Below are positions 9,808 through 40,304 of a stretch of DNA of 64,000 bases, piece by piece. The position numbers were made by a program, and so were the translations under genes. The stretch covers positions 1 to 64,000 of IMG/VR virus record IMGVR_UViG_3300012016_000004. One strand, written 5' to 3'. The stretch is from a virus. Lineage: Duplodnaviria > Caudoviricetes. Each line of letters begins with the position of its first letter. Within the stretch, counting starts at the first letter, position 1. The notes beneath the pieces were generated by a model that did not search any database, was not told where the DNA came from, and saw only the letters and a program-made list of their open reading frames with translations.

Positions 9808-12800
9808 CTATCGTTTGATGGTTACACCCTCTTGCTTCATCCGGCTGATGTCGCTACCGATGGAGTCGAGTCCATCGATGATGTCTCCGGCCTTCTCGTT
9901 CAAAGCCTCGGTATCCTTATGGATGCCCATCACATGCTTGAGGATTGAGCCGGTCATGCCAATCAGCGCAGAGTGAAGCTCGCGCATAGTACGGACATCC
10001 TGCTTCATCTCGTAGGTGTGTCCTTGGATGGTTGTCAGCCTGGCGTTCTGCTCATCTACGGAATCCTGCGATGCCGTGATGCCACTGTTGGTGGCGCCGG
10101 TCCTCGTAGTGTCTTCCTCGTTCATCTGGAGATTGAGTCCACGGAGGAACTGCGTGATGGCCGGGGCTTCCGAGTTGGCCTTATCCAGCAAGCTGTTGTA
10201 GAACTCAATGGCACCAGCGGCATCGTTCGCAAGGAGCATGTTCTTGATTTTCTCCTGGGCGTCCTTGTTGAACACATCTTCCATCAGCATGCTGGTCACA
10301 ACCGACTTGGCCATCTGCTTACCAAAGTCTTTGGCGAGGTCAGTCAAGTCTGCCAAAGCATCCCCGCTTTCGAGGAAGGCATCAACCATCGAGCTGGCCA
10401 CATTCTCCGCGACGCCATTGAACAAGTCGGAGAGGTACTGCGACATACCGTCCATAGCTTCCTCGTATCGCTCCCACTCGGACAAGATGGAATCTACCGT
10501 ATGCTTGGTCTGGTCATCCAGGTAGTCTCCGTACTGGTCATACCATGCCTTGAGCTTGTCCCCGTTCAGCTTGCCGTTCTCATCGTAGAAGTCTGCAAGG
10601 TCAGCAGTGACAATGTTCTTGGATGAGCCCCAGAACTTCTGCCAGCCACTACGCATATCGGCCACCAGTTGACCGGATACCTTGCCAACACCTTCGACCA
10701 CGCCCTTGAGGGCCATGAGGCCACCGCTGAACGGATCGCCGGTGACACCAAGGCCGGCAGTCATAAGGAGCGCACCCCAGTTCCGGAGTACCTTCTGATT
10801 GACCTTCATGCCTTTCTCCAGCTCATCGAGATTGTTGCTGGCCTCCTGCAGCTGCTTATTGAATGCGATGAACTGGCCGTAGCCGTCCTCGCCGAAGGCG
10901 TTCTTGAGTTTATCCAACCTCGCTGCATCATTCAGCTCCTCCAGGGCAATCTTGTATTTGCGGGCCGCTTCCGTAGCACGTTCCGTTGCTTCGTTGTTGG
11001 CCTTGATGATGGAGAAAATCGCCGTGACCACCTTGATAGCAGCCTTGATGATGAGCAGGATGACAGAGGCAGATTCTGCAGCACTGATGGCCTGGGCCGT
11101 CGCTTCGCTGGCCTGCTCTACTCCTTCTGACACTCCTTCTACGGTGTCCTGGAGACCACCAACAATATCCTCGCCCTCCTTGACGAAGATTTCAGTAATC
11201 TCCATTGCGGTGTCACCCACCTCCTCGAACAAGTCAATAGCATCGCCCAGAACCTTGGCAACATCATCATCGAATATGCCTACCAGCTCTACGGCACCAC
11301 CTGCAACCGTACTGATTGTGCCGCGAGCCTTGTTTAGCGCGGAGATGAATTTCATCGAGGAGCTGACAACCTTACCCTGGGCGTTGTTGAGCTTCGCGGT
11401 GCTCTTGGTGAGCTTGTCTTGGGCACCACCCAACTCCATCTGCGCAGACTTCAACTGCTCGTCATATTCCTCTTGGGTAAGAATGCCATCGTTGAGCATG
11501 CTGTCCAACGTGGACTTCTGAATAGCATAGTTGGCGTCAGCAAGAACCATCTCTTGCTGAGCCTTCTTGTATTCCTCCAGGGCAGCAACAGTCTCGTCTT
11601 TAGCGGCTGCTACCTCCTGCATGGAGATGCGCATGGCCGCGAAAGGATTGCGATTGGACAGTTCATCGGAGATGGAGGCGATGGCCTTTTCCATCTCGCT
11701 GATGTCCTTCACATCCATCGACCCTTTGTTCGAGGAGAGGAGAGCCCTCGCTTTTGCAAGGCTTTCAGTGAGAACCCGCGTGGACTGCTCGCCGATGTTA
11801 CCGAACAAGGCAGACCAGTTGATGCTGGACTGCATTCCTTTGAGCTTGACTCCGCTCAACTCCTCGTCCCTCTGTTTGGCCAGAGACTTCTTCTCCCACT
11901 CGTTATTGGACTTGGCAATCAGAGCATTGTACTTCTCTGTGATGGCCAGCTCCTGCTCCTTGATGTTTCCATACTCAGCAAGGTATTGCAAGCGGTGGTC
12001 ATTGAGGGCAAACAGTGCATCGTCCCTCTGCTTGGCCAGCATCTTCTTCTTATACTCGTCATCCTCCTTCTCGATGGCGGCATTGTAGCTCGCTTCGATA
12101 GCCTGCTCCTGCTCCTTGTAGTCACCATAGGTCATCAGATAGTTCCACTCGCTCTGGAGCTTCTCATCGAGGACCTCCTTGGTCTTTTTAGCGGCAATCT
12201 TCTCGGTGTCATCAATGCGCTTCTGGAACTGGGCAAGGGTAGTCTGATCTATCTTGTTTCCGGACTTCCTTCCAGCTTCTTCCAGCTTCTTTTGCTCATC
12301 CTTAATAGCAGCGATAGATTGGAGCTTTTCATTTTCAATCTCGGCCAGGCGCTTTTCGTAGCCATCCTCCATGGCCTCAATCTCCGTATTGGCAACAGAC
12401 ATCCACATATCGCGCACGGCCTGCTTGAATGCGTCGCCATATCGCTTGATTTCTTTCTTCTCCGCGTCTGTAAGAATCTTCTTCGGAGTAGTTGTCGTTG
12501 TCGTATTATCGTCTTTCTTATTGAAGCCGGGAGGAGGCATCGGACCAATGAAGTCATTCTCTGTCCTGGTACGTTCGCCAAAACGCCTATCTGCTTCGGC
12601 CATTACATCAGTAAGAGTCTGAGCAGCGCTCGCAGCGCGAGAGAGCTGCATCTGCATGGCGTTGGTCGTGTATGAATAACTCTGCGCGGCCGTACCCTGG
12701 ACATAGGAGACTGTCTTATCGAAGGAGTCAACGACAGACTTCAATTCATCGCTCATCTCCTGCTTTCCCTCAAGCACTGGCACAATCTTCCAGAAGTATG

Positions 12801-14607
12801 TCTCGGCAAGGCTTACGCCATCGCTGCCCTTCTGGTCGCCGAATTTCTCCTTGAGTAGTTTATAGACCTCCTCGCGAACATCAGCTATCGTCTTCCCATA
12901 ATCATCGGCAGCGGAAGCGGTGAAGCTCTCAAAGGCTCTGGCTTTTGCTGCTTTCGATGCCTCCTCCGTAATGGTCTTGTATGCAAGAGCAATATCATCA
13001 AGCGCGGTCTTCTCGTCACCAAGCTTAGTGAGATACTGACCGTACTTGGACATGATTTCCTGCTTTGCTCTATCGTACTCCTCCGTCCCTTCCCTTGCAG
13101 CCTTGAGCTTTGCGAACAGAGTGTCGATTTTCGCCGTTTCAGCGATGATTCCGGCAGTGGCATCCTTGTCTGCCTTATCGAGTTTCTTCATCGCTTTCTC
13201 GGCGTCAGAAGTGGCAGAGACCATCTTGTATATGCCGAAGGCAAGACCAGCCACGGCAGCAGCAGCAAGAGCATACGGATTCTTGAGGATGGTCTTATTC
13301 AAAGCCTTCTGCGCCTTATCAGCAGCAGTCAAAGCTGCGAAGTGAGCAATCTCGGCCCTGGTCCAACCCTTGGTGGCCATAGCAGCAGCGGCCTTCAATG
13401 CGTTAATAGTGATGAGAGCTGCCTTGTATGCACCGAATGTAGCTATCAGTTCCACAATCAGCCGACCGAACTCATCGGCGTTGTCCGTGACCTTGTTGAT
13501 GCCATCGGCAAGGGCTTCTATGGCATTGGCCATCGGGCCGTTGCTGTCCTGGAACTTCAACATGAGACCTTCCCATGCAGACTGGAGCTTCTTTGTGGCA
13601 CCAATGAGGTTCTCGGTCATCGTGCCGTACATCTGCTCCAGTGTACCATCTACACTGCCGAGAGCCTGGCGAAGTTCATCAGCCGATGCCGCTCCAGTGA
13701 TGAGGGCGTTAAATGCAGAGACGGAACGTTTGTCCGTCATCTCCAAAGTCTCGCTCAGGTCAATTCCACGAGCATTGCATTCCTTCAACGAATCGATAAT
13801 CTCCGGGAATGTACGAGCTGTATGACCAAGGCCCTTTGCAAGCTTTCCGTTTGCATCCGCAAGGTTGAGCAGGATGTTTCTCGTGGCCGTTGCTGCGGAA
13901 GAAGCATCAAAGCCAGCGTTGGACAAGGCGCCGAGCAGGGTCACGGTGTCTTCTACCGTGAGACCAAAGGTGTGAGCGATAGGCGCTACGATAGAGATGG
14001 AGGTCTCCAGCTTACTGAAATCCAGTGCTGACTTGGTTGTCGCAGCAGCCATTACATCCAGCAGATGAGTGGAATCCTTGGCTTCAAGGCCAAAGCCTCG
14101 CAGGGCTGCGCCAGCGAAATTAGCCGCCCTTCCAAGGTCGGCATTCACGGCAGCAGCGAACTGCAAAACTGTGCCCTGCATTTCCTTAATCTGTGTCTTT
14201 GTGAAGCCAAGGCGAGCGAGGGCCAGCTGGAGCTCAGTGACCTCCGAAGCAGTGAACTCAGTAACACGGCCAAGGTCTTCCGCAGCCTTCGACATGTCTT
14301 TGATGTCACGGATAGATGAGCCGAGGACAGAGGCAAGTTCTGCATTCTTCCTTTCGAAGTTCGCATTCAGCTCAACGGCGCTCTTACCGACACGTGTTAC
14401 CGCGCTGATGGCTGCTGCAACCGACAGATACCTTGCTGCAAGTGTACCGAGAGAGTCTCCGAGCTTGCTCGATGACTTATCCAGAGAATCGCCGAAATTC
14501 TTGACCTTCCTTTCAGCCTGGTCAAGTCGCTTTTCGAGTTTTGCAACCCCCCTATCAACCGGGGCGTCATCGACTCCCATTACTATTTTCAGTTTGCCAT
14601 CATCCAT
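9808..14607 (-). CDS. Tail tape measure protein
   Basis: 1599 aa, Ala/Lys/Glu-rich helical; N-terminal TP901-like region (GRVTEFTASEVTELQLALARLGF...GFDASSAATATRNIL). Confidence 0.93.
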   Translation of the reverse strand: MDDGKLKIVMGVDDAPVDRGVAKLEKRLDQAERKVKNFGDSLDKSSSKLGDSLGTLAARYLSVAAAISAVTRVGKSAVELNANFERKNAELASVLGSSIRDIKDMSKAAEDLGRVTEFTASEVTELQLALARLGFTKTQIKEMQGTVLQFAAAVNADLGRAANFAGAALRGFGLEAKDSTHLLDVMAAATTKSALDFSKLETSISIVAPIAHTFGLTVEDTVTLLGALSNAGFDASSAATATRNILLNLADANGKLAKGLGHTARTFPEIIDSLKECNARGIDLSETLEMTDKRSVSAFNALITGAASADELRQALGSVDGTLEQMYGTMTENLIGATKKLQSAWEGLMLKFQDSNGPMANAIEALADGINKVTDNADEFGRLIVELIATFGAYKAALITINALKAAAAMATKGWTRAEIAHFAALTAADKAQKALNKTILKNPYALAAAAVAGLAFGIYKMVSATSDAEKAMKKLDKADKDATAGIIAETAKIDTLFAKLKAAREGTEEYDRAKQEIMSKYGQYLTKLGDEKTALDDIALAYKTITEEASKAAKARAFESFTASAADDYGKTIADVREEVYKLLKEKFGDQKGSDGVSLAETYFWKIVPVLEGKQEMSDELKSVVDSFDKTVSYVQGTAAQSYSYTTNAMQMQLSRAASAAQTLTDVMAEADRRFGERTRTENDFIGPMPPPGFNKKDDNTTTTTTPKKILTDAEKKEIKRYGDAFKQAVRDMWMSVANTEIEAMEDGYEKRLAEIENEKLQSIAAIKDEQKKLEEAGRKSGNKIDQTTLAQFQKRIDDTEKIAAKKTKEVLDEKLQSEWNYLMTYGDYKEQEQAIEASYNAAIEKEDDEYKKKMLAKQRDDALFALNDHRLQYLAEYGNIKEQELAITEKYNALIAKSNNEWEKKSLAKQRDEELSGVKLKGMQSSINWSALFGNIGEQSTRVLTESLAKARALLSSNKGSMDVKDISEMEKAIASISDELSNRNPFAAMRISMQEVAAAKDETVAALEEYKKAQQEMVLADANYAIQKSTLDSMLNDGILTQEEYDEQLKSAQMELGGAQDKLTKSTAKLNNAQGKVVSSSMKFISALNKARGTISTVAGGAVELVGIFDDDVAKVLGDAIDLFEEVGDTAMEITEIFVKEGEDIVGGLQDTVEGVSEGVEQASEATAQAISAAESASVILLIIKAAIKVVTAIFSIIKANNEATERATEAARKYKIALEELNDAARLDKLKNAFGEDGYGQFIAFNKQLQEASNNLDELEKGMKVNQKVLRNWGALLMTAGLGVTGDPFSGGLMALKGVVEGVGKVSGQLVADMRSGWQKFWGSSKNIVTADLADFYDENGKLNGDKLKAWYDQYGDYLDDQTKHTVDSILSEWERYEEAMDGMSQYLSDLFNGVAENVASSMVDAFLESGDALADLTDLAKDFGKQMAKSVVTSMLMEDVFNKDAQEKIKNMLLANDAAGAIEFYNSLLDKANSEAPAITQFLRGLNLQMNEEDTTRTGATNSGITASQDSVDEQNARLTTIQGHTYEMKQDVRTMRELHSALIGMTGSILKHVMGIHKDTEALNEKAGDIIDGLDSIGSDISRMKQEGVTIKR

Positions 14608-15445: not shown

Positions 15446-15549
15446 TGGTCGCTCCGGGAGGACTCGAACCCCCGACCAAATCATCATCGGCGAAGTGGAT
15501 TCCATGGAAAACCGACGATGCAAAGCTCTACCTACTGAGCTACGGAGCG
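15446..15549 (-). ncRNA. tRNA-like RNA with elongated anticodon arm (104 nt)
   Basis: Acceptor CGCTCCG/CGGAGCG plus A-CCA; D-arm GCTC-AGTAGGTA-GAGC; T-arm GGGGG-TTCGAGT-CCTCC; 51 nt between D- and T-arms instead of ~23. Confidence 0.7.
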
Positions 15550-28712: not shown

Positions 28713-28904
28713 ATGAAAGAAGAATTTACAACAGCAATGCACGAGGAACTCATCGGAAAGGAGATTCCTCATAGCGACCTTCTTATCGGCAGTGTTTACG
28801 GAGCAATCAAAAACGGCGTAAAGAAATCTGATGCGCTTGCAAAATACGGAGTATCAGAATCTGAGTACGACCAAAATATCCATCGTGTCTTATACTCCGT
28901 TTAG
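28713..28904 (+). CDS. Small protein, candidate immunity factor for the MuF toxin domain
   Basis: 63 aa; only supported plus-strand gene; own promoter; 3' end overlaps the MuF gene by 15 nt. Confidence 0.6.
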   Translation: MKEEFTTAMHEELIGKEIPHSDLLIGSVYGAIKNGVKKSDALAKYGVSESEYDQNIHRVLYSV

Positions 28905-30734
28905 ATAGCCCCTCAAGTATGACATCGCTTTCGGATCATCGAGAAACATTACTCCGTCCCAGCTACTTCCATACAAAATAGCCTTTGCTCCAGGAATCTC
29001 CGCAAATAAGCGCATCGGGAAAAGACCTCTATGGTCGATATAGTAGCTATCGTACGCCTTCTTGAAAGCTATACCAAGTTCAGTATTTTCTGCTTCTGCA
29101 AGACTGATAAACGCCCTTGCCGTTTTGCTATCGGTAGAGAATCCATATCTCGCCCAGCAATAGCCACCCACATCAATATTTGCACGTAAGTCAATCCGGC
29201 TGAATTTCGACCTCTTATACTCATTAAGGAACACATTGAAGACCTTCTTAGATGCACCCTTACCTTGAAACTGGGTTGCCAATTCAAAGCTTTGGTGCTC
29301 TACCCTTATCTCACCATCAAGCATAGAGAACTGGCGTTCCAATCTGAAATAATCTCCATCAAGAGTCAATCTAAAGGCATTCTGACCATCTACAACCACA
29401 CGTTTGAAAGACGCTCCGAATCCATATTCGTCATAGATTGACTGCATACCTCTCTCAATTCGAGGGAGATTAAAATGCGACAGAGGTACACAAGACTCGA
29501 TGGCCTGCAAAGCATCCTTTCCAACAAGCTGTTCGCCAGAATTTGTTTTGAAAGCATATCCGGAGGAAATCATCGACTGCACAGATTCAATACTCCATGA
29601 GAAACTCTGTTGCGCTTCTTTAACGATAGCATCTACAACTGCCTTATTGTCTTTGATGAAGTATGGGAGAGACCCTCGCATCTCAGCTTGCGTGATCCTA
29701 TCACTGTTGTCCGAAACCCAATCCTTGAAGTTGCCAGGCACATCGCTGATATAATTCTTCGACTGTGTTGTATCGTAATCTTCTCCATTGATGTAGGCCA
29801 GTGTCCTCGCCTCCATCTCCTCATCGGAAATCAGAATCGGCACCATGTAGCACCGGCAGTTCGGATGCCACCCATTCCACTTAAAGTCCTTTGGGTAACG
29901 TCCGGCCAGCGAAGCACACACCGGGCAATCGTAAGGATGGTTACTCCTCTTGATCTCAATACCGACAACATAGTCTTTCTCCAGATAGCTCAACTGCTCC
30001 GCGTTCCGGTAGGCCATGTTAATCTCCGTTCTGGCCAGGCGCTTTGCATTCTTGAAGGAGCTTCTGTAAACACCCTCGCCGGGGTTGTAGGCAGCGGCAT
30101 TCTTCGACAGATGGAGCATCCCAAACTCATCCCGCACCCTGCGGAACAGCTTACTCGGCTCATTCAGCAGTTCCTTCATGGATTCAGCCAGTTCGTCCGC
30201 GCTGGTGCCACTGGCTATGGAGCGGGCCAGTTCCGCTTCTATACGGCTCTGATTTGCAAGATTCCAAACCCTTGAAGAGAGATTGAGACCGCCAATCTGA
30301 CGGGTCTGGAAAGCCTTTAGCGCAGTTTCATGATTGTTCAGATGCTCACCAACCATCGAAGCCTTCAATTCGTCCGCAGAGATGCCCAGCTTCTTCATCC
30401 GGGAAGTGAGGCCGGTCTTCTGCATCACATACTCCAGGATACCGTCATTCGCATCCTGCGTACCATGCGCCCACTCGGCTGTGGTCCCAGTGATAATGGT
30501 TTGCCCCATACCGCGAGCGAGGCTGGCAACAAGGTTGTCAACCTCCCTCTTGATTTCCGGATAGTCGGAGAAATAGAACTGGCCGTCCTTTTCGCGGTCG
30601 TAGGATACACTTGTGGACAAGGAAATGAATCGACCAGTAGCCTTTCTCATTAGCGACTCAATGCGCTTGACATACTGCTCGATTCTCCTTAGGTTAGCGG
30701 CACCTAATCTCTGATAGCTGCCTTCGAGACTCAT
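28890..30734 (-). CDS. Minor head protein (MuF/SPP1 gp7-like) with C-terminal GNAT-like domain
   Basis: RLARTEINMAY...CPVCASLAGRYPKDFKWNGWHPNCRC MuF motifs; C-terminal FQGKGASK...GGYCWARYGF. Confidence 0.8.
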   Translation of the reverse strand: MSLEGSYQRLGAANLRRIEQYVKRIESLMRKATGRFISLSTSVSYDREKDGQFYFSDYPEIKREVDNLVASLARGMGQTIITGTTAEWAHGTQDANDGILEYVMQKTGLTSRMKKLGISADELKASMVGEHLNNHETALKAFQTRQIGGLNLSSRVWNLANQSRIEAELARSIASGTSADELAESMKELLNEPSKLFRRVRDEFGMLHLSKNAAAYNPGEGVYRSSFKNAKRLARTEINMAYRNAEQLSYLEKDYVVGIEIKRSNHPYDCPVCASLAGRYPKDFKWNGWHPNCRCYMVPILISDEEMEARTLAYINGEDYDTTQSKNYISDVPGNFKDWVSDNSDRITQAEMRGSLPYFIKDNKAVVDAIVKEAQQSFSWSIESVQSMISSGYAFKTNSGEQLVGKDALQAIESCVPLSHFNLPRIERGMQSIYDEYGFGASFKRVVVDGQNAFRLTLDGDYFRLERQFSMLDGEIRVEHQSFELATQFQGKGASKKVFNVFLNEYKRSKFSRIDLRANIDVGGYCWARYGFSTDSKTARAFISLAEAENTELGIAFKKAYDSYYIDHRGLFPMRLFAEIPGAKAILYGSSWDGVMFLDDPKAMSYLRGYLNGV

Positions 30735-32216: not shown

Positions 32217-33749
32217 TTAGTCCATATCTTCTTCAATTTCCTCGACCGACAGCCCCTTGCTGTCCTTCACCGGATAGAAAGTATTGCACAACGCATCCCA
32301 CTTATCTGGCGAGCGGCCAAGCCTTTCCTTGATGTCCTCCTTCTTCTCTATGAGGATGGAGCCGGTGCTGGTAAACGACCACTTGATGGCCGTCGCTTCC
32401 TCCAAAAGCATATCATCTGGCGGCAACATGGCACCAGTCTTGTTCTTCGGATTGAGCCAGTCTCTCACACACCAATGCAGATATGCCCTCATATTGGCAA
32501 ATTTGTACTGTCCGGTTTTATCGGACAGTCCGTTGGCGCCCTCGCTGAACTTACACGAATAGGCATTCTTAATATTCAGTTCCTGGAGCCGAGAGTACAC
32601 GCCGGCGCCTTCTCCGATGGTATCAATCAAGGCCCGCGACTTCTTCTTGCTCTGATGAAGGCCGTTGATAGTCATTCCGGCAACCTTCATGTGGTCGGCT
32701 TTGCCACCCGACTGATGCACCTGGAATCTGGAAACGTAGTTGTCGTAGCGGTAGCATAAGTTGGAGCTATCACGGCCCATACCAGCCACATCAACACCAA
32801 GGTCCAGATCCTCATCCGGAATCCAGTCATCGCCCATCTCCTCCTTTTTCTCCTTCCATCTCTCCTGGGCAAGAGTGACCCACTCGTAAGGGATGAGGCA
32901 GTCTTCGGAGGCGCGAGGGAATAGCCCAAGCACCTTTACACGGAAAAGGTCATTTGGACGATACAGCCCACCTTCCCATTTGAAGTCTCCCTCGCCCTCA
33001 TTGAAGTCATCCGGGTTGTAGATAGGGGTACACCAGTTTTCAACCTTATCGGCCACCCAGCGATAGTCCACCTGGCCGGGGAAAATCATCTGCTTCCTCA
33101 CGACATTCTCTGCATTCAGAGAGTTAAGCCGGAAGTGCTTGAATCGGTCAGAGGACATGGCCTTGGCCGCATAGCCGGAAGTGATATTCGGGTTAAACAC
33201 CAGCAGCAGCCGTGAATCGCCCTGCAGGTTACCTTCTATGGCATTGTACACCGTTTCCGAGATACCGGATGCTTCCGTCACGGCGAACATGATGTGGACG
33301 GCATGGAGACCGGACCAAGACTCTGTTTCCTCCGCTGCCTTGAAGCCGGTCAGAAACCATTCCTCATACGGAGTCTTAATCTTCGAGGACTGGAGTATGC
33401 CAGGAAGGAATCCGGCCCGGCGGTAGAGCCTGGAGATTTCCGGCATCATGATGTTATACACCTGCCGGCCGGTAGGCGCAGTCATGATGACCTTCGTATT
33501 CTCAACCAGCTCTCCCTTCTTGTTGAATCTGGGGGTCAGATATAGAAAGCAGAGGCATCCGCAGGCCGAGACAAAATCCTTGCCCCTTGAGGTCCCGGAT
33601 GCCACTGCTGTCATCGGATTCGTTTGGAGGGATTCGATGATGGCTTGCTGTTCTTTGTCAAGACGAGCACCAAGCACATCCCGGACAAACTTGTTCCAGT
33701 CTGCCCGCCAAGACATCATGTATTTCAGTCCTTTCTCGTTTACCTCCAT
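32217..33749 (-). CDS. Terminase large subunit
   Basis: VASGTSRGKD Walker A, FAVTEASG Walker B, LLVFNP motif, LGVDVAGMGRD and SPDKWDAL nuclease motifs. Confidence 0.92.
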   Translation of the reverse strand: MEVNEKGLKYMMSWRADWNKFVRDVLGARLDKEQQAIIESLQTNPMTAVASGTSRGKDFVSACGCLCFLYLTPRFNKKGELVENTKVIMTAPTGRQVYNIMMPEISRLYRRAGFLPGILQSSKIKTPYEEWFLTGFKAAEETESWSGLHAVHIMFAVTEASGISETVYNAIEGNLQGDSRLLLVFNPNITSGYAAKAMSSDRFKHFRLNSLNAENVVRKQMIFPGQVDYRWVADKVENWCTPIYNPDDFNEGEGDFKWEGGLYRPNDLFRVKVLGLFPRASEDCLIPYEWVTLAQERWKEKKEEMGDDWIPDEDLDLGVDVAGMGRDSSNLCYRYDNYVSRFQVHQSGGKADHMKVAGMTINGLHQSKKKSRALIDTIGEGAGVYSRLQELNIKNAYSCKFSEGANGLSDKTGQYKFANMRAYLHWCVRDWLNPKNKTGAMLPPDDMLLEEATAIKWSFTSTGSILIEKKEDIKERLGRSPDKWDALCNTFYPVKDSKGLSVEEIEEDMD

Positions 33750-33765
33750 TTCTCATAGTCGTACT

Positions 33766-34992
33766 CTATCGGACGATTCCTCGATACAGATAGTCGCGCA
33801 GCTCCGGCAAGGTCATCTTTCCGATGCCAAGGTAGTCAAGGCTGTACTTCGATGTGGCTCTGAGGTCTTTCTCATGGAAGGCAGAACCAATGACGATCAT
33901 CGAATCAATGACCGGAGTTGGAACGCCGAACTTCGCGCCCAGCTCGCTGTAAATCTTGCATCCGACCGGAATGTCCTCCGTGATGTAACGGTGGTTGATA
34001 TTGTCCGGTCCAGTATTGCCTTCATCGCACGGCTTGTCCAGAGGGAACACCACATTGTCCCTTCCGCTGGCATCAAGGCCCATGTACTCTGCCGTGAGGA
34101 TGCTGCGCCGGGAGAAGAACTGCTCGTACTCATACTCCGGGTACTTGATACCGATAGCATCGGCAATAGCGCACTCCTCTTTGTAGAACCGGTACTGTGT
34201 TCTGCAGATGGAAGGGCAAAGGCCATGCGAGTACATGGAATAGCTGCCGGGGGCATTCCCGTACACTTCCCAATTCTCCATGCTTGAAACGCCAAGCAAT
34301 GACGCAGGGACATGGATAACCGGGTTCACATTGGAGAAACCGATGTCAAGCATCGTATCGCCGACCACCGGACCGTCCCCCTTTGTCACAGACTCCATGC
34401 ACGGTAGATAGTCCACGGAATCCATGAACGTTGCAATGTCCGTCATCGGAAGGCAAGCACCGCGAAGACTGATGGCCCGATACTTAACACCAACATGGTT
34501 GGTCCAGAATCCGGCCACCTTCTCTATCCTCGTGCCGTAAGGAGCGGAAGACCATCCTCCAACGATAACATCCTTTGTACAACCGGCTTCACGCATCAGT
34601 TTCCTGAGCAGCAAGCTCGCGTAGTTGTCCGGGAACGTGTGGATAATCATTCCGTCCTCCAGCAGCGGGACGAGTTTCCGCAGGTAGTCTTCGTGGGCAA
34701 GCGCAGGGACAGAGATGAGTATGAGCTTTGCTCCTCTCACCGCCTCGGCCATGTCGTTCGTAACGACATCAAGAAATGCACGGCCAGAACGTTCGAATCC
34801 ATACAGATTGCGCTGGATACCGTCAAGCAGGATGCCGGTGCGCTCTACATACTGGATAGACTTCGGGCTACGCGAGTACAGACGGACCTCGCGGCCGGCC
34901 AGCTTGCAGTCAGCAGCGAGTGTCTTTCCGACGGCGCCACCACCGAGTACGGCGATGGGGCAGTCTTTCAGATAGGTTAAATTCTTCATCAT
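33766..34992 (-). CDS. NAD(P)-dependent opine (octopine/nopaline-type) dehydrogenase
   Basis: IAVLGGGAVG Rossmann fold; SNVNPVIH; C-terminal GPDNINHRYITEDIPVG...FGVPTPVIDSMI. Confidence 0.85.
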   Translation of the reverse strand: MMKNLTYLKDCPIAVLGGGAVGKTLAADCKLAGREVRLYSRSPKSIQYVERTGILLDGIQRNLYGFERSGRAFLDVVTNDMAEAVRGAKLILISVPALAHEDYLRKLVPLLEDGMIIHTFPDNYASLLLRKLMREAGCTKDVIVGGWSSAPYGTRIEKVAGFWTNHVGVKYRAISLRGACLPMTDIATFMDSVDYLPCMESVTKGDGPVVGDTMLDIGFSNVNPVIHVPASLLGVSSMENWEVYGNAPGSYSMYSHGLCPSICRTQYRFYKEECAIADAIGIKYPEYEYEQFFSRRSILTAEYMGLDASGRDNVVFPLDKPCDEGNTGPDNINHRYITEDIPVGCKIYSELGAKFGVPTPVIDSMIVIGSAFHEKDLRATSKYSLDYLGIGKMTLPELRDYLYRGIVR

Positions 34993-35019: not shown

Positions 35020-35361
35020 TTATTCCGGATTATCCGGGAGTTTCTTCATCATCTCCTCGAAGGGATTCAGCTGGACCTTGTTCTCCACCGTCTCCACATA
35101 GCCACGTTCTTTACCCTTCGTCTTTAAGAAGAAGATGAGGCAGGTATCGTTCCCCGCATCTATCTTCTCTATGAGCTTGGACTCTGCCCAGTCAATCAGA
35201 GACTCGTCAACGTCCTTGAGCATCTCCGCAAGTTTCGGAAACGACTTCCTCCAATGGTAGAACTGTGTGCGCCCACATCCGAGAGCAGTGCAGGTGGCAG
35301 ACACGTTGCCACCCTTCTTCTCATACACCTTTGCAATGGTTGCAAAACTTGGTCTTTTCAT
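35020..35361 (-). CDS. Terminase small subunit-like HTH protein
   Basis: GNVSATCTALGCGRTQFYHW...IFFLKTKGKERGYVE. Confidence 0.75.
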   Translation of the reverse strand: MKRPSFATIAKVYEKKGGNVSATCTALGCGRTQFYHWRKSFPKLAEMLKDVDESLIDWAESKLIEKIDAGNDTCLIFFLKTKGKERGYVETVENKVQLNPFEEMMKKLPDNPE

Positions 35362-35372
35362 ATCTTCTCCTC

Positions 35373-36224
35373 CTATTTTGTTGCGGTCTCAACGACCTTG
35401 CGAATAAATTCATCATATTCTATCCCGGCGCATTCTTTGGCGCAACCGGCCAGGTGGTCCGTGGCGCCGAGACATGGGTACAGATTGAGGTCAATGAGCA
35501 CGTAGTCTCCGTCCAGTGTCTGACGGAAGTCTATTCTCATGTATCTCTTGGCGCCGACCGCCCAGAAAGCGGCCCGTGCATAGCGGATCAGCTTATCATC
35601 AATCAGCGGATGGCAGACATCCACCTCCTTGAACTTGAGTTCGTGAGTGAGGATGCCGGACTTACTCTCATACTCAAGTATGACCGGCCAGCAATCCGGA
35701 ACGCCAGTCTTGTAATTGGCTACGAGGCCGACGGTGCAGTCGCGCCCTTCCACAAACTCCTCGATAATGGCATGGTCATTAAGGGTGGTCTCAATCTCCA
35801 CGACCTTCTTGCGGATTGCCTCGCGAGACGTGCAGATGGAGTCCTCGTCAATACAGTTGCTATCTTCGCCATGCATCGGCTTGACGAAATAACGGCCACC
35901 GTCACAAGGCTCTATGACGGTTTCTGGGACACGAACTCCGGCCTGCCGGAGCAAACCCTTACTGATTGCCTTATCGTGCGTCAGATGCACCGTTTCCCGG
36001 CTTTCTGCCGTAGTGTATGCGCACGTCGCAACAAGCTTGTCAATGATGGTGCGGTTCCTGGTCTGAACGAGAATCCTATCGCTGGGACAGATATAGTGAA
36101 AATCATCGTCCTCCGTGGCGAAGATTCTCTTGATATTGGAGCCGAACACCCTTTCAAGGTGGGCATACCTTTCGTCCGGCATGAAGGCGCTTTCCTCGCG
36201 CCTGGTGGTTACAACGTAAATCAT
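35373..36224 (-). CDS. ATP-grasp ligase (D-Ala-D-Ala ligase-like)
   Basis: DKAISKGLL..AGVRVP, YFVKPMHGEDS, IIEEFVEGRD.TV, RIDFR, DLNLYP. Confidence 0.85.
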   Translation of the reverse strand: MIYVVTTRREESAFMPDERYAHLERVFGSNIKRIFATEDDDFHYICPSDRILVQTRNRTIIDKLVATCAYTTAESRETVHLTHDKAISKGLLRQAGVRVPETVIEPCDGGRYFVKPMHGEDSNCIDEDSICTSREAIRKKVVEIETTLNDHAIIEEFVEGRDCTVGLVANYKTGVPDCWPVILEYESKSGILTHELKFKEVDVCHPLIDDKLIRYARAAFWAVGAKRYMRIDFRQTLDGDYVLIDLNLYPCLGATDHLAGCAKECAGIEYDEFIRKVVETATK

Positions 36225-36232
36225 ACTGATAC

Positions 36233-36964
36233 CTATTTCTTTCCCGCTGATTCAAAAGCCGTCATACTATCTCCTATTTGCATCAGAGCCAGCTCCAGAA
36301 TCTTCGAGAATATGATGTTTGAGGATTTGATTTCGAGCTTCTGATTTATCTCCTTGGAGAGCTTGAGATACAGCTCCTCGTTCGGCTCGTTCTCGGCCAT
36401 GACAACGACATCGCTTTTCTTGATAGCCTCACGCAACTCCCCGACCAGTTCCTCGAAATACTGCATGGCCTTGTTATACAGAACAAGCGTGACCGTGAAG
36501 GTCTCCTTCTCCAGAGGGGATGCGATGGAACCGACATCAATGTTGCCGATTTCGTCAATGTTGATGTGGGCGAACTTCTTGAAGTCAACACTCGAAATGC
36601 TTTCGAACAATTTCTTCAAGATGCTCTTGTTGTCTGTCCCATGCAAGGAGTTGTGGGAAAGCTGGATTGCTACAATCTCATCTTTCGTCAATTCTGACTC
36701 CAGGGCATAAAGAATGCCTATCTCTGTGAAGCCCTTCTTGCGACATGCATGGACACGATGATGACCACTGATGATAGTAAACCGGCCATTCTCCCGCTTA
36801 TAGCAGGTCGGCACCGAACTTAAACCACTCCGGCCGATGTTCTCGACCAACTGATTGAAGTCATCGTCAGACATCATGTTGGCATTCAACTCGGCATCGT
36901 CTATCATGTCGATGGGTACGACCTCGTACTTCCATCGGTTTTCCACTTTATCCTTTTGCTGCAT
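36233..36964 (-). CDS. ParB/Srx-like N-terminal domain protein
   Basis: LNANMMSDDDFNQLVENIGRSG...FTIISGHHRVHA...SHNSLHG. Confidence 0.85.
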   Translation of the reverse strand: MQQKDKVENRWKYEVVPIDMIDDAELNANMMSDDDFNQLVENIGRSGLSSVPTCYKRENGRFTIISGHHRVHACRKKGFTEIGILYALESELTKDEIVAIQLSHNSLHGTDNKSILKKLFESISSVDFKKFAHINIDEIGNIDVGSIASPLEKETFTVTLVLYNKAMQYFEELVGELREAIKKSDVVVMAENEPNEELYLKLSKEINQKLEIKSSNIIFSKILELALMQIGDSMTAFESAGKK

Positions 36965-39005
36965 CGTTGACAGATTTTAAGTATGTTTTGATGATTTCCT
37001 CGTTATCGGCAAACCGGCCAAGGTGGCCCACATAGAAAAGTGAGTTCGGAGTGCATCTCTCCTTCACCTTGTTGTACAGACCACGGTACTTCATGGACAC
37101 CGGCTTCTTCGTATAGGCAATAGTGAAGACTGACTCCGCTTCCATGCGATTGAAACGGGACAGAATCTTCTTTACCTCCTTTGACAGAAGGCACATCAGC
37201 ACCAGGCGGGACAGCCGGGGAACGGCATTGTTCGTGGCGAAATCACAGAGCTGCTCCATGTCATATTCCTTCGCCGGCGATTTGGTGAAGCCAAAACCAC
37301 CAAGCAGATAGTCTCCGTACATCACGACAAAGCTGAGCCTGGGGCTTTGGAATGAGTTGACCTTATACACGAAATGCTCCTGCAGGATTCGGAAGTCAAC
37401 GGCGCACCGTCTGATAGACAGCAGCGCGGGGTCATTGATATACAGATCATCCGGAGGCACCTTGTAATCCACCTGGTTCGGAAGCTGGTCGTTCACGATG
37501 ATGGCAGACGTCTTCGGCTTCGGATGGTTGCTATAAAGATACTTCCCGAAATCCTTCGAGCCATGCCCGGTGTCGAACAAGGCAATCTTGTGAAGGTTCA
37601 TCAGATACGGCGTCTCGCTGAACACATAGAAGTTCACATCGTCCGGGACACTCTCTACCAGGCCGTCATACTCCGTTGGCTTGACATCCCAGTCTTCCAC
37701 TTCGCAGTTCCTCCGATAGATGCCGAACGTGCGCTTTGAGGTCTTATCTCCGACCAGCTGGAAAAGGATGTTCTTTTCTCCGTTAGCGAGGGCATCATGG
37801 ACCGTCCCACGAACATACCGGCACGAGGTCAGCATGTCGATGTAGAACTGGGCCTGCTCACGCATGTTTGCGATGCTCTCGTGCATCTTCTCTCGGTAAG
37901 CGGCCACTTCATCATCCTTGAACTCGTTCCCGCCTTCTATGACCTTTCTGAGCTTCGTGACGATGAGAAGGAGCGACACCTGGCGCAAAGGCGTGTTGTC
38001 ATTATACTCCTCCAACCACGCGATGTCCTTCTTGAATGTCACGGTCATCTGTCCAGTGGCCAGCAGGTACAGCAGGTGGCAGTAATTGTTCTGATTGTAG
38101 ATGACAAGCTTCGGCACCTTCTTGAACAGAGCGCTCTCAAAGCCAAACATGTTCGGATTCACGCAGCAAATCTCATCGAGGTTCAAGTCAACGAGCGCCT
38201 TGACCATCTTCTGGTTGCTGTCGATGGCTTTCGCCATGAAGCATTCCTTGGGATGGTACGGATTGCCCATGTAAAGCAGCGGAGGGATGAGAGCCGGCAT
38301 CTCCTTCGGCAGCTTCGTAAGCGCCATGAACTCCTCGTAGGAGCGGATGGACTTGAAGTCTTCTTCGGTGTGATGGATGGCGTATTCAAACATCCGGTAG
38401 GCAGACAGAACACAGTTGAAGGCCAGTTCCGGAGACTGCGTAGCATTGAAGCAGCGGAACTCAACTGTCTTCGTCTTGAACACGGCTGCTATATTGATGA
38501 GGAAACGGATGTAGCCCTTCTTACTCTGGTTCGACAGAGTGTTTTGCAGGTCTTGCATCGTCTCGCACTTCTTCACACGCTCGTAGTAACTTGGAGTGAT
38601 GGCAGGCTGGCAGTTGAACACCTTGTCATTCCAGTCACCCCAGTTGTTATGCTGGTTGATATACGGCGTCAGAAAATACGTGAAGAAGAAAACGCGCTTC
38701 AATTCTTCAACGGTCAGGTCGCCGGCGTAGATGTGGACATGCGTATCGATAGACCACTTGAGCTTGCCACCATGCTTCTTCATCTGGTCGTATAGGTAAA
38801 CGAGGTCATCCCGGTCCTTCCAACAAAGATGAAGCGGAGGGGTGTTCACCTCGCCGCCGTATTGTTTGCTTACCTGGCCGTCGGTATTGAAAATTTGCTC
38901 ATCTGGGCTCCATGAATAACCTGCAGGGAGAGAGACGCGCGTTCGATCCACATTGCACATCTCTATCTCCATTCCGAAAGTCCTCTCTGTGATTTTCAGT
39001 TCCAT
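36948..39005 (-). CDS. Amidoligase (COOH-NH2 ligase) fused to a Mom-like GNAT domain
   Basis: N-terminal TFGMEIE, GGEVNTP, THVHI, TVEFRCF; C-terminal segment aligns by eye with phage Mu Mom motifs recalled from memory. Confidence 0.7.
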   Translation of the reverse strand: MELKITERTFGMEIEMCNVDRTRVSLPAGYSWSPDEQIFNTDGQVSKQYGGEVNTPPLHLCWKDRDDLVYLYDQMKKHGGKLKWSIDTHVHIYAGDLTVEELKRVFFFTYFLTPYINQHNNWGDWNDKVFNCQPAITPSYYERVKKCETMQDLQNTLSNQSKKGYIRFLINIAAVFKTKTVEFRCFNATQSPELAFNCVLSAYRMFEYAIHHTEEDFKSIRSYEEFMALTKLPKEMPALIPPLLYMGNPYHPKECFMAKAIDSNQKMVKALVDLNLDEICCVNPNMFGFESALFKKVPKLVIYNQNNYCHLLYLLATGQMTVTFKKDIAWLEEYNDNTPLRQVSLLLIVTKLRKVIEGGNEFKDDEVAAYREKMHESIANMREQAQFYIDMLTSCRYVRGTVHDALANGEKNILFQLVGDKTSKRTFGIYRRNCEVEDWDVKPTEYDGLVESVPDDVNFYVFSETPYLMNLHKIALFDTGHGSKDFGKYLYSNHPKPKTSAIIVNDQLPNQVDYKVPPDDLYINDPALLSIRRCAVDFRILQEHFVYKVNSFQSPRLSFVVMYGDYLLGGFGFTKSPAKEYDMEQLCDFATNNAVPRLSRLVLMCLLSKEVKKILSRFNRMEAESVFTIAYTKKPVSMKYRGLYNKVKERCTPNSLFYVGHLGRFADNEEIIKTYLKSVNDAAKG

Positions 39006-39026
39006 AATCCGCAGCTAATAAAAAAG

Positions 39027-39097
39027 AGCGGAGAGACCGATTCGAACAGCCGCCTCGATGCAGGAAGCACCGCGCTCTACCACTGAGCTATCTCCGC
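39027..39097 (-). tRNA. tRNA-Gly (TCC), atypical, CCA not encoded
   Basis: GCGGAGA/TCTCCGC acceptor, U73, D-arm GCTC-AGTGGTA-GAGC, anticodon arm CGGTG-CTTCCTG-CATCG, T-arm GGCTG-TTCGAAT-CGGTC. Confidence 0.85.
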
Positions 39098-39124: not shown

Positions 39125-39571
39125 CTAAAACAACCCGTCAAAGAGGCTTGGCTCCTCAAGTACCGGCGTTTGCATCTGTTTTGCCACCTGCTCCTCAATC
39201 TGCTTCTGGTCCGGTTCCCATTCCTTGATTTCAAGTCCGGTCTCCCTGAGCATCCAGTCGGCGAACAGTCTGCGGTGGCAGAAGTCTCCAGGCTTTTCGT
39301 AACAGAGCAGAGCGGCATCCTTGCCTTGCGACATCCTTTCGATGTCAGCGATGACCTGGGCCGGATTCAGATGGCCTACGACATCTCTGTAGTACATCTG
39401 AATATACTGCTCCCTTGTTACCTCATCCTTCATCATATACCGTTTCGGCGCGAGGTACTGGAGATGCAATCCTTGAAAGAACTTCGGCGGCCAAAGTGCG
39501 ATTCCAATCGGGACTATGCCAGCCTCTCTTAATTTGCCCTGGCGGGCGAAATAGGATGTATAAATTTCCAT
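39125..39571 (-). CDS. DUF488-family protein
   Basis: MEIYTSYFA...LAP...ALLCYEKPGDFCHRRL; probable start 39571, just after a promoter. Confidence 0.8.
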   Translation of the reverse strand: MEIYTSYFARQGKLREAGIVPIGIALWPPKFFQGLHLQYLAPKRYMMKDEVTREQYIQMYYRDVVGHLNPAQVIADIERMSQGKDAALLCYEKPGDFCHRRLFADWMLRETGLEIKEWEPDQKQIEEQVAKQMQTPVLEEPSLFDGLF

Positions 39572-39586
39572 TTCCTTTTGTATATG

Positions 39587-39628
39587 CAAATCTACAAATA
39601 ATTTTCCAAATAGTTGCAAAATGAAACG
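39587..39628 (-). promoter_or_regulatory. Promoter of modification/terminase operon with palindromic operator
   Basis: TAGATTTG (39594-39587); AGTTGCA-N3-TGAAACG (39612-39628). Confidence 0.6.
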
Positions 39629-39647
39629 CTTTTTTGCAAAAAAATCG

Positions 39648-40304
39648 TCATTTTTTGGTCTGCAACTGCACTTCTTGCGGTTCTCCATGCGGACGGTCTT
39701 TGTACAGCCACTTAATCATCTTCTGGCAAAGAATGTCAACAGCCGCCACTATCGGCTTACTCTGATTCGGATTGACATGCCGGTCACTGACAGCACTGTG
39801 GAACAGATTCATGAACCTGGAGCTGGCCTTCTCGATTGCCTGGATATCCATGTTCTTCTGATTGTACAACGTTGATGTCTTATAGCAATTCCCCCAGACA
39901 ATCTGTGCAGACTGCGCCATGATGTTTGCAATCATCAGCTCTGCACATGTCTTCTGAATGTCGAAGTCAAGGTCCTGCAGGAAATTCATTATCTGGACTT
40001 TCGCAATCATCACATCGTTGGCAATCCAGTTGTCGAAGTCATCCATCTTGTCCACTACCTCATTCTGCTCATCCAGCGTGAATGCCCGGAAAAACTGCTT
40101 GTTCAGACGGTTGTATGCATCAATCCACCTCTGCTTCCACAACTTCATCTCATGCTTGCTTTCGAGCGGTCTGACCGTTTTAAGGAATATCTGATAATTG
40201 ACATCCAGCATCAGGAACGGAAGGATGGTCTCAAGGGTATGGCCCTGCACACGTTTCATGCCGATGGAAGCGAGCCATTTATCTACCATTTCATCGTTCG
40301 TCAT
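39648..40304 (-). CDS. Hypothetical protein
   Basis: 218-aa ORF. Confidence 0.65.
   Translation of the reverse strand: MTNDEMVDKWLASIGMKRVQGHTLETILPFLMLDVNYQIFLKTVRPLESKHEMKLWKQRWIDAYNRLNKQFFRAFTLDEQNEVVDKMDDFDNWIANDVMIAKVQIMNFLQDLDFDIQKTCAELMIANIMAQSAQIVWGNCYKTSTLYNQKNMDIQAIEKASSRFMNLFHSAVSDRHVNPNQSKPIVAAVDILCQKMIKWLYKDRPHGEPQEVQLQTKK

Follow-up and report, generated by a model that had tools for sequence, protein, structure and literature searches.

An amidoligase, a Dam-like domain and a GNAT domain in one phage protein beside a tRNA-Gly gene: a candidate enzyme of DNA hypermodification

In a gut-type phage, the gene at positions 36948..39005 (- strand) of the window, i.e., the whole stretch of 64,000 nucleotides that was analysed, encodes a polypeptide of 685 aa in which an amide ligase of the ATP-dependent kind is joined to a Dam-like domain that looks catalytically dead and to an acyltransferase domain. 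In our best reading, for which the chances appear about even, this fusion is an enzyme of three domains that belongs to a module for the hypermodification of phage DNA. The chemistry suggested by the combined analysis, for which belief and doubt are likewise balanced, would be a tRNA-Gly-dependent aminoacylation of DNA (at adenine) by a Mom-type transfer, followed by extension through ligases. The gene context, especially the adjacent tRNA-Gly gene, constitutes the strongest support for such a Mom-like, Gly-tRNA-dependent chemistry.

Domain structure of the fusion protein

The reading frame of the fusion gene (P0001; phrog_2443, "amidoligase enzyme") is intact, and its start codon is consistent with the alignment of homologues. 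As the original prediction had proposed, the protein is a three-part fusion: Amidoligase_2, DAM-like-phage2 and GNAT-phage-like are found in Pfam, each past its curated cut-off, and no NCBIfam model matches the protein. The AF2 model of the whole protein has a pLDDT of 87.3 and a pTM of 0.72. A homologue search yielded 734 matches, with about 30 clusters (at 50% identity) possessing the full architecture. In a phage collection, zero matches were obtained by nucleotide search, and by protein search, hypothetical proteins of mycobacteriophages, 28% identical to the GNAT part, were the only matches. An origin from a prophage or a bacterium was considered and rejected; the source record is a virus contig of 72,008 bp that is rated complete.

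Domain 1 (aa 1-235; 38301..39005, - strand) is a GS/YbdK-like COOH-NH2 amidoligase, and the proposed N-terminal ligase could thus be confirmed in fold as well as in motifs, the latter being located at residues 10-15 (FGMEIE), 50-56 (GGEVNTP), 89-92 (HVHI), and 181-184 (VEFR). Amidoligase_2 (PF12224) matches aa 44-189 (1.5e-13; 51.6 bits vs a cut-off of 22), and residues 1-235 align in VIA-align with YbdK (1tt4 and 1r8g, Z 11.8 and 11.3, respectively) and with glutamine synthetases (Z about 10). Among 27 full-length homologues, down to 23% identity, no variation is seen at E13, E15, G50, T55, P57, H91, R167, T180, E182, and R184, and hardly any at E52; the acidic, His and Arg residues conserved here would be those expected to bind metal and ATP, and may correspond to the catalytic roles known from GS.

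Concerning domain 2 (aa 236-500; 37506..38300, - strand), the middle part of about 250 aa had been regarded as unassigned. It is not, since DAM-like-phage2 (PF22556) matches aa 238-407 above the Pfam cut-off (2.8e-33); PF22555 matches the domain as well (5.5e-08), and E. coli Dam structures align with aa 259-497 (about 180 residues, Z about 10), such that the middle is best described as a degenerate Dam-like fold. The domain is also related to the N-domain of a group of two-domain phage proteins (99.7%, E 5e-26 in hhalign), which consist of DAM-like-phage1 and GNAT-phage-like within about 430 aa (phrog_7858). A regular-expression search of residues 236-500 found neither [DNS]PP[YFW] nor the FxGxG SAM loop, and few residues are invariant in the homologue alignment. 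In hhalign, the Dam-like profiles gave nothing significant against the single sequence of E. coli Dam; in this colinear, non-significant alignment, ILFQLVGD is situated opposite VVYCDPPY of Dam. Presumably, domain 2 is not a methylase. As the domain is degenerate, it is only the fold and the context that point to DNA, and to adenine, as the target. The following linker (aa 501-522; 37440..37505, - strand) is modelled at low confidence (pLDDT <50 at aa 499-510 in AF2), and its PPDDL motif is conserved across the aligned homologues.

Domain 3 (aa 523-685; 36951..37439, - strand) exhibits the beta-alpha-beta core of the GNAT fold according to both the structure search and GNAT-phage-like (PF22559; aa 537-677, 1.7e-29 in Pfam), and modelled alone it reaches a pLDDT of 91.3. 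In a comparison of this model with 48,161 chains, Mu Mom (8bv8) ranks first (Z 10.4, rmsd 3.1, 136 aligned residues; Z 10.9 with the model of the whole fusion), in a tie with generic GNATs and acetyltransferases, whose scores lie within 1 Z; 75 chains reach Z of at least 8, and the best 50 of these 75 are almost all of the GNAT fold. Mom is a GNAT that moves glycine from Gly-tRNA-Gly onto the N6-adenine of dsDNA (Silva et al., Nat Commun 2026, PMC13219725). A motif search of all 685 aa found the Q/RxxGxG/A motif, which binds the pyrophosphate of acyl-CoA, nowhere in the protein, which is what one would expect if the donor is not acyl-CoA.

The Mom-like character of the C-terminus, as originally predicted, is only partly supported: the GNAT fold and the first rank of Mom among its structural neighbours, shared with other GNATs, stand, whereas the family profile of Mom (PF25680), which matches Mu Mom itself at 2.4e-75, has no match to the fusion protein at E <= 1. 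The C-terminal strings on which the prediction was based are indeed present (aa about 528-642), and the Mom strings quoted there agree with the actual Mom sequence. The parallel drawn between them by eye, however, is statistically unsupported, with E of 0.89 to 17 in BLASTP against Mom and about 2% probability over 25 columns when the fusion family is compared with the Mom family profile in hhalign, and therefore carries no weight as evidence; a weak alignment is confined to the beta2-beta3 segment. Searches of PDB sequences by phmmer and by profile yielded no relative, Mom included, the best matches being chance ones to antiterminator Q (E >= 0.12). By sequence, the fusion protein is hence not a member of the Mom family.

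Within 32 C-terminal homologues, G569, D588, S637, K639, Y640, R641, and Y658 are invariant or nearly so, and D588, K600 and the SMKYRG motif are invariant among the homologues of domain 3; in the fusion protein itself, beta4 is followed by TNNAVPRLSRL. R111 and S124 are indispensable to Mom (PMC13219725); at their secondary-structure positions (end of beta4 and start of alpha3), the invariant D588 and K600 are found here, with no significant alignment spanning them. Both enzymatic end domains look active, given that the ligase and GNAT residues are invariant or nearly so in homologues down to 23% identity. That transfer and ligation are coupled in one polypeptide, as had been suggested, would be plausible.

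Gene neighbourhood and the adjacent tRNA-Gly

At 39026..39097 (- strand), 21 nt upstream of the start of the fusion gene, ARAGORN detected a tRNA-Gly(UCC), the only tRNA it found within the window. The gene forms a normal cloverleaf (52.1 bits with the Rfam tRNA model), with an anticodon loop CUUCCUG that contains U37 and G38. A Gly-type tRNA is situated upstream in 74 of 80 loci of three-domain homologues; these loci are not independent, as all come from a single phage lineage (TerL identity 61-69%). A nearby tRNA-Gly is absent from the other 6 of the 80 close loci and likewise from every distant three-domain locus that was examined (L082-L087). For the two-domain relatives, of which 80 loci were covered, Gly-type tRNAs occur in about 35 loci and account for 36 of the 38 tRNAs found; they form 22 clusters that are less than 80% identical to one another, and are mostly located 18-175 nt upstream.

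Upstream of the tRNA follows a gene of the DUF488 N3a 'active' subclade (39125..39571, - strand; PF22751 1.6e-08, phrog_2450 4e-31). Its open reading frame extends to 39688, and the ATG at 39571 is the likely start, the phrog_2450 match beginning at residue 34 of the frame and homologues being 132-148 aa long. The DUF488 gene is found in 77/80 three-domain and 60/80 two-domain loci. For enzymes of the DUF488 clade, Burroughs and Aravind reportedly predicted in 2023 that the termini of sugars or RNA are the targets; their paper probably introduced the DUF488-N3a family and may have covered this system too. On the other side of the fusion gene, a ParB-N-like gene (36233..36964, - strand; phrog_7405 1.7e-63, further ParB-like PHROGs, and a weak ParB_N match) begins before the fusion gene has ended, with an overlap of 17 nt; it is present in 80/80 loci of the three-domain set and of the two-domain set alike. 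The trio of DUF488, fusion and ParB-like genes is kept at 23-30% identity and lies beside the terminase in one examined set of loci.

Further along the same strand, a gene for a Ddl-like ATP-grasp ligase (35373..36224, -; Dala_Dala_lig_C 1.5e-09, also matched by NCBIfam Ddl models) is followed by a TerS-like HTH gene (35020..35361, -; phrog_309 4.4e-06, HTH matches in Pfam), an opine dehydrogenase gene of the octopine/nopaline type (33766..34992, -; Octopine_DH 8e-32), and the gene of the large terminase (32217..33749, -; phrog_2 4.6e-24). The ATP-grasp gene occurs in 80/80 three-domain vs 0/80 two-domain loci. The opine dehydrogenase gene, here placed between the TerS-like and TerL genes, is situated directly upstream of the fusion gene in relatives; it often accompanies the amidoligase version, and both ATP-grasp ligase and opine dehydrogenase are found only with the amidoligase fusion.

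Proposed chemistry and alternative explanations

In the proposed route, the module would be expressed together with the packaging genes, and the GlyRS of the host would charge the tRNA-Gly of the phage. With the aid of the ParB-like protein, the Dam-like domain, itself dead as an enzyme, would bind DNA and present a base, most likely adenine at N6, onto which the GNAT domain would move glycine from Gly-tRNA-Gly in the fashion of Mu Mom. Further amide bonds may then be formed on the glycyl adduct by the amidoligase domain and by the ATP-grasp ligase encoded nearby, possibly after the opine dehydrogenase has condensed the glycyl amine with a keto acid and so provided a carboxylate for the ligases. 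The two-domain relatives do without any ligase, which suggests the transfer of plain glycine as the ancestral first step.

The alternative that survives best, though unlikely, likewise assumes the use of Gly-tRNA-Gly, but with an acceptor other than DNA and the Dam-like domain as a mere scaffold; the product would be a glycine-containing peptide, an opine-like metabolite, a modified protein (e.g., of head or packaging), or a modified tRNA 3' end. Amidoligase_2, ATP-grasp and opine dehydrogenase enzymes are typical of small-molecule and peptide biosynthesis, the catalytic motifs are gone from the Dam-like domain, and action on sugar or RNA termini is what has reportedly been predicted for the DUF488 clade. 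Furthermore, the tRNA-dependent FemX, L/F-transferase and PacB use non-DNA acceptors (PMC13219725). Against a mere scaffold speaks that the Dam-like fold is fused to a GNAT domain throughout both architectures without exception, always with the ParB-like gene adjoining, and that the two-domain relatives keep the methylase-like motifs FPPTY and SND; the location of the module at the packaging genes and the rank of Mom as top structural neighbour of the GNAT domain equally argue for DNA.

A reversed order of events is improbable to a higher degree: amidoligase, ATP-grasp ligase and opine dehydrogenase would first make either a glycyl-tRNA that is N-substituted or an acyl donor in free form, from which the GNAT domain would transfer the finished group to DNA in one step. 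A ligase-transferase fusion allows channelling in either direction, and the consideration that an N-substituted glycyl amine would block the Mom-type rearrangement, as that reaction is described in PMC13219725, also counts for this order, whereas the existence of two-domain relatives that work without any ligase speaks for transfer first.

Slightly more doubtful still is an ordinary acyl-CoA-dependent acyltransferase, with DNA or something different as its substrate, beside a translational tRNA that happens to lie in a tRNA hot spot. This explanation would be in accordance with the generic acetyltransferases found within 1 Z of Mom, with the normal cloverleaf of the tRNA in the window (52 bits in Rfam), and with the tRNA site of some relatives, which carries a Met, Asn, Ser, Arg or Cys tRNA or none. 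It fits poorly, however, with the predominance of Gly-type tRNAs right beside the gene in the independent two-domain set and with the absence of the CoA pyrophosphate-binding loop from the GNAT domain. In addition, many of the Gly-type tRNAs, as seen in the three-domain set, bear features unfit for decoding (A34, anticodon loops of 6 nt, aberrant T or D loops), yet they keep G1-C2-G3, U73 and C35C36, and thus the identity elements for GlyRS. Finally, a decaying, non-functional gene is very unlikely from the outset, as nothing except the degenerate methylase motifs speaks for it, whereas the frame is intact, homologues and full-architecture clusters are numerous (734 and about 30 at 50% identity), residues of active-site type are invariant, and synteny is conserved.

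Returning to the tRNA-Gly-dependent modification of DNA, a wider generalization may be put forward, with rather less confidence than an even chance would warrant: phages of several lineages would feed a DNA-aminoacylating Dam-like/GNAT enzyme from a private, non-translational tRNA-Gly, and in the phage studied here, two ATP-dependent ligases and an opine dehydrogenase would elaborate the glycyl group into a peptide- or opine-like adenine adduct, i.e., an undescribed class of DNA hypermodification in which the viral tRNA serves as cofactor and not in translation.

To our knowledge, Mom is the only enzyme that modifies DNA with a charged tRNA. Its chemistry has recently been explained (PMC13219725). 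The fusion and its relatives, of which there are hundreds of homologues in phages of the gut, the rumen and the environment, suggest that such chemistry occurs far more widely, and also that phages encode dedicated tRNA-Gly cofactors and form an adduct that ligases can extend. If true, this would mean new DNA hypermodifications that bear on restriction evasion and on phage-host range in Bacteroidota-type hosts, with relevance to sequencing artefacts and to tools for enzymatic DNA labelling; it would also provide a function for the PHROG family 'amidoligase enzyme' and for PF22555, PF22556, PF22559, and PF22751, for which no tested function was found. In the literature on phage amidoligases, DUF488, ParB and hypermodification, no paper on such a fusion was found, although an earlier description may exist; the words 'amidoligase' and 'fusion' are absent from Silva et al. 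2026 (PMC13219725).

Comparison with known systems

Domain 1 shares its fold and its acidic, His and Arg residues with YbdK/GCS2, glutamine synthetase and Amidoligase_2 (PF12224), but differs from them in being the N-terminal module of a putatively DNA-directed multidomain protein. Phage Amidoligase_2 proteins have been proposed to act on cell-wall or peptide substrates, as Iyer et al. 2009 are cited in PMC11318856. With N6-adenine DNA methyltransferases such as E. coli Dam, domain 2 has the overall fold and the Pfam label DAM-like in common, whereas the DPPY-type motif and the FxGxG SAM loop are missing and the sequence alignment with E. coli Dam is not significant.

The FemXAB enzymes of staphylococci are GNAT-type transferases which use non-proteinogenic tRNA-Gly that has diverged from the translational tRNAs. 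The fusion may be likened to them in the dedicated tRNA-Gly as source of glycine; however, the acceptor of FemXAB is a peptidoglycan precursor and not DNA, and these enzymes are cellular and not encoded by phages.

Among the relatives are the two-domain phage proteins, whose Dam-like and GNAT domains are homologous to those of the fusion (99.7% in hhalign for the Dam-like part), with which they share the motifs SDF, RLSKL and SMKYRG as well as the company of DUF488, ParB-like and tRNA-Gly genes. They differ by lacking the amidoligase domain and the ATP-grasp and opine dehydrogenase neighbours, and their Dam-like domain retains more methylase-like motifs (FPPTY, SND) than that of the fusion.

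With Mu Mom (PF25680, 8bv8), domain 3 shares the GNAT fold, Mom being its nearest structural neighbour (Z 10.4-10.9, rmsd 3.0-3.1, 134-136 residues), and both are devoid of the canonical CoA loop; furthermore, both are of phage origin, and their genes are expressed together with those for late functions or packaging. The link to tRNA-Gly is biochemical for Mom, whereas for the fusion it is one of gene neighbourhood. Sequence kinship between the two is not detectable, and R111 and S124 of Mom are without recognisable counterparts in the fusion. Mom is a single domain that uses a host tRNA, whereas the fusion includes the Dam-like and amidoligase domains, is accompanied by a phage-encoded tRNA-Gly, and is partnered with DUF488, a ParB-like protein, an ATP-grasp ligase and an opine dehydrogenase, and its product would be expected to be larger than the N6-carbamoylmethyl-dA of Mom.

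Domain composition and predicted structure of the fusion protein

The fusion gene, an intact ORF at 36948-39005 (-) with a product of 685 aa, is situated in a complete 72-kb virus contig, among genes for a MuF-like head protein, portal, TerL, and a TerS-like protein. All motifs quoted in the original prediction are found in this product, and the Mom strings given there agree with the real Mu Mom sequence. The proposed three-part fusion corresponds to three Pfam domains, each above its curated cut-off: Amidoligase_2 (residues 44-189), DAM-like-phage2 (residues 238-407; DAM-like-phage1 also matches, more weakly), and GNAT-phage-like (residues 537-677); the second of these occupies the part that had been considered unassigned. 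In PHROGs, the whole protein is assigned to phrog_2443 'amidoligase enzyme' (1e-92). Since its domain families are already catalogued in Pfam and PHROGs, the protein belongs to an already known sequence family; a literature search found no paper on its function, which may nevertheless have been described before.

The AlphaFold2 model (27 homologues as alignment input; pLDDT 87.3, pTM 0.72) was compared with known structures by VIA-align. Residues 1-235 resemble YbdK/GCS2 structures at Z 11.8 and 11.3 and, at Z about 10, glutamine synthetases, residues 259-497 resemble E. coli Dam (Z about 10), and residues 523-664 resemble Mu Mom (8bv8; Z 10.9, rmsd 3.0, 134 residues). When the C-terminal domain was modelled separately (pLDDT 91.3) and compared, without Foldseek, with 48,161 PDB representatives, Mom ranked first (Z 10.4, rmsd 3.1, 136 residues, 13% identity); many ordinary GNATs follow less than 1 Z behind, such that the modelled fold on its own is that of a GNAT, not of Mom in particular.

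Judged from its residues, the ligase domain looks active, since E13, E15, G50, T55, P57, H91, R167, T180, E182, and R184 are conserved in homologues down to 23% identity. The Dam-like domain exhibits few invariant residues and possesses neither a (D/N/S)PP(Y/F/W) motif nor an FxGxG loop. It is clearly homologous (hhalign 99.7%) to the N-terminal domain of Dam-like/GNAT proteins of ~430 aa, a larger family than the three-domain one. As these two-domain relatives (alignment A4, e.g., protein P0297) retain FPPTYKGGYE at the position of Dam's DPPY and an invariant Asp within SNDVSLYS, their Dam-like domain may have kept the ability to bind a flipped adenine. The three-domain proteins have lost the two motifs, and we infer that the Dam-like domain of the fusion protein is a non-catalytic module for DNA binding or base presentation. 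The linker that joins the Dam-like to the GNAT domain is mostly modelled with low confidence and contains a PPDDL motif (aa 517-521; 37443-37457), conserved across most three-domain homologues.

Association with tRNA-Gly genes

The decisive evidence for a tRNA-dependent reading is gene context. In the window, a tRNA-Gly(UCC) gene with the anticodon loop CUUCCUG (U37 and G38) is situated 21 nt upstream of the fusion start codon. Among 80 IMG/VR three-domain loci (38-73% identity), 74 contain Gly-type tRNAs upstream on the same strand; of the other six, four contain other tRNAs and two none. Many of the Gly-type tRNAs have the anticodon ACC (A34), 6-nt anticodon loops (e.g., AUUCCA), UGCG T loops (UGCGGCU), or D loops without GG; G1-C2-G3, U73, and C35C36 are retained in all Gly-type tRNAs. 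These 80 loci represent one phage lineage (TerL 61-69% identical) and are therefore not independent samples. The two-domain relatives, with 80 diverse loci, served as an independent test set: 36 of their 38 tRNAs are Gly-type, forming 22 clusters below 80% identity and mostly lying 18-175 nt upstream of the gene, and the remaining two, both Met tRNAs, are at distances above 3 kb. The association of this GNAT family with tRNA-Gly is thus specific and recurrent. No tRNA was found in the distant three-domain loci L082-L087, whose phages may, like Mu, use the tRNA-Gly of the host.

The tRNA-Gly-like genes of loci L004-L081 retain a GCG...CGC-U acceptor end throughout (e.g., L062:4748-4821, L060:4563-4633), and one copy has ACG replacing ACC. 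A second tRNA-like gene of the window, at 15449-15549 (-), was detected by Rfam (tRNA, 41.9 bits) and missed by ARAGORN. It encodes CCA and has normal acceptor, D, and T arms, but in place of the 17-nt anticodon arm it carries 45 nt that form a long stem with a large, UUCCA-containing loop. The gene is not Gly-type, because its discriminator is A.

Partner genes

A ParB-N-like gene follows immediately downstream in all 80 three-domain and all 80 two-domain loci, and DUF488 (N3a subclade) lies upstream in 77 and 60 of them, respectively, an arrangement that persists at 23-30% identity. In the window, the DUF488 protein from its likely start (ATG 39571) begins MEIYTSYF; the ORF is open for 39 further codons upstream (39572-39688, (-)), an extension that runs into the gene before it and into an AT-rich sequence resembling a promoter, whose TTTG boxes are of the kind typical of Bacteroidota.

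All 80 three-domain loci encode a Ddl-like ATP-grasp ligase, which none of the 80 two-domain loci does. In many relatives an opine dehydrogenase gene directly precedes the fusion gene (L028:4929-5993, L014:4854-5990); that of the window (33766-34992, (-)) is flanked by the TerS-like gene and the TerL gene. The amidoligase domain thus comes along with extra amide-forming and amine-tailoring enzymes. In one relative, the same upstream slot holds an alanine-racemase/D-Ser-dehydratase-like PLP enzyme (L072:5130-5987), which suggests that tailoring enzymes in this slot are interchangeable.

Elsewhere in the window, the MuF-like head protein (28890-30734, (-); 614 aa) also matches the PHROG 'Bxa ADP-ribosyl transferase' (2.2e-66), and the about 240 residues beyond its MuF-like region may be an injected effector domain. 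The structural region includes giant ORFs of 2515 aa (1304-8851, (-)) and 1599 aa (9808-14607, (-)).

Proposed reaction and comparison with Mom

The following scheme is inferred throughout, and we give it as a whole about an even chance. The phage tRNA-Gly would be charged by the host GlyRS, positioning of the DNA would fall to the Dam-like domain together with the ParB-like protein, and the GNAT domain would transfer tRNA-borne glycine to the amino group of a base, most likely adenine N6 by analogy with Mom (PMC13219725). The adduct would then be extended by the amidoligase and the ATP-grasp ligases, and a carboxylate may come from the opine dehydrogenase, which would reductively condense the glycyl amine with a keto acid. 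Of the main rival readings, an acceptor other than DNA seems unlikely, the same steps in reverse order are still less probable, and an ordinary acyl-CoA GNAT accompanied by tRNAs through coincidence is the least probable of the three.

The C-terminus had been predicted to be Mom-like, which holds for its GNAT fold and its first structural match and does not extend to a significant sequence or profile relation. The fusion protein has no match to the Pfam Mom family, which Mom itself matches at 2.4e-75, and BLASTP against Mom was not significant. In a profile-profile comparison (32-102 C-terminal homologues, 24 Mom homologues), the beta2-beta3 hairpin alone aligned, with about 2% probability, and a profile search of PDB sequences did not recover Mom. 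G569, D588, S637, K639, Y640, R641, and Y658 are invariant in the GNAT family, and F589, K600, and T632 nearly so; evident counterparts of R111 and S124, essential in Mom (PMC13219725), were not found in the GNAT domain. The CoA-binding Q/RxxGxG/A loop is absent from this domain, likewise from Mom. Such fusions are not mentioned in the Mom paper (PMC13219725), and under the proposed scheme the module would be a variant of Mom-type tRNA-dependent DNA modification.
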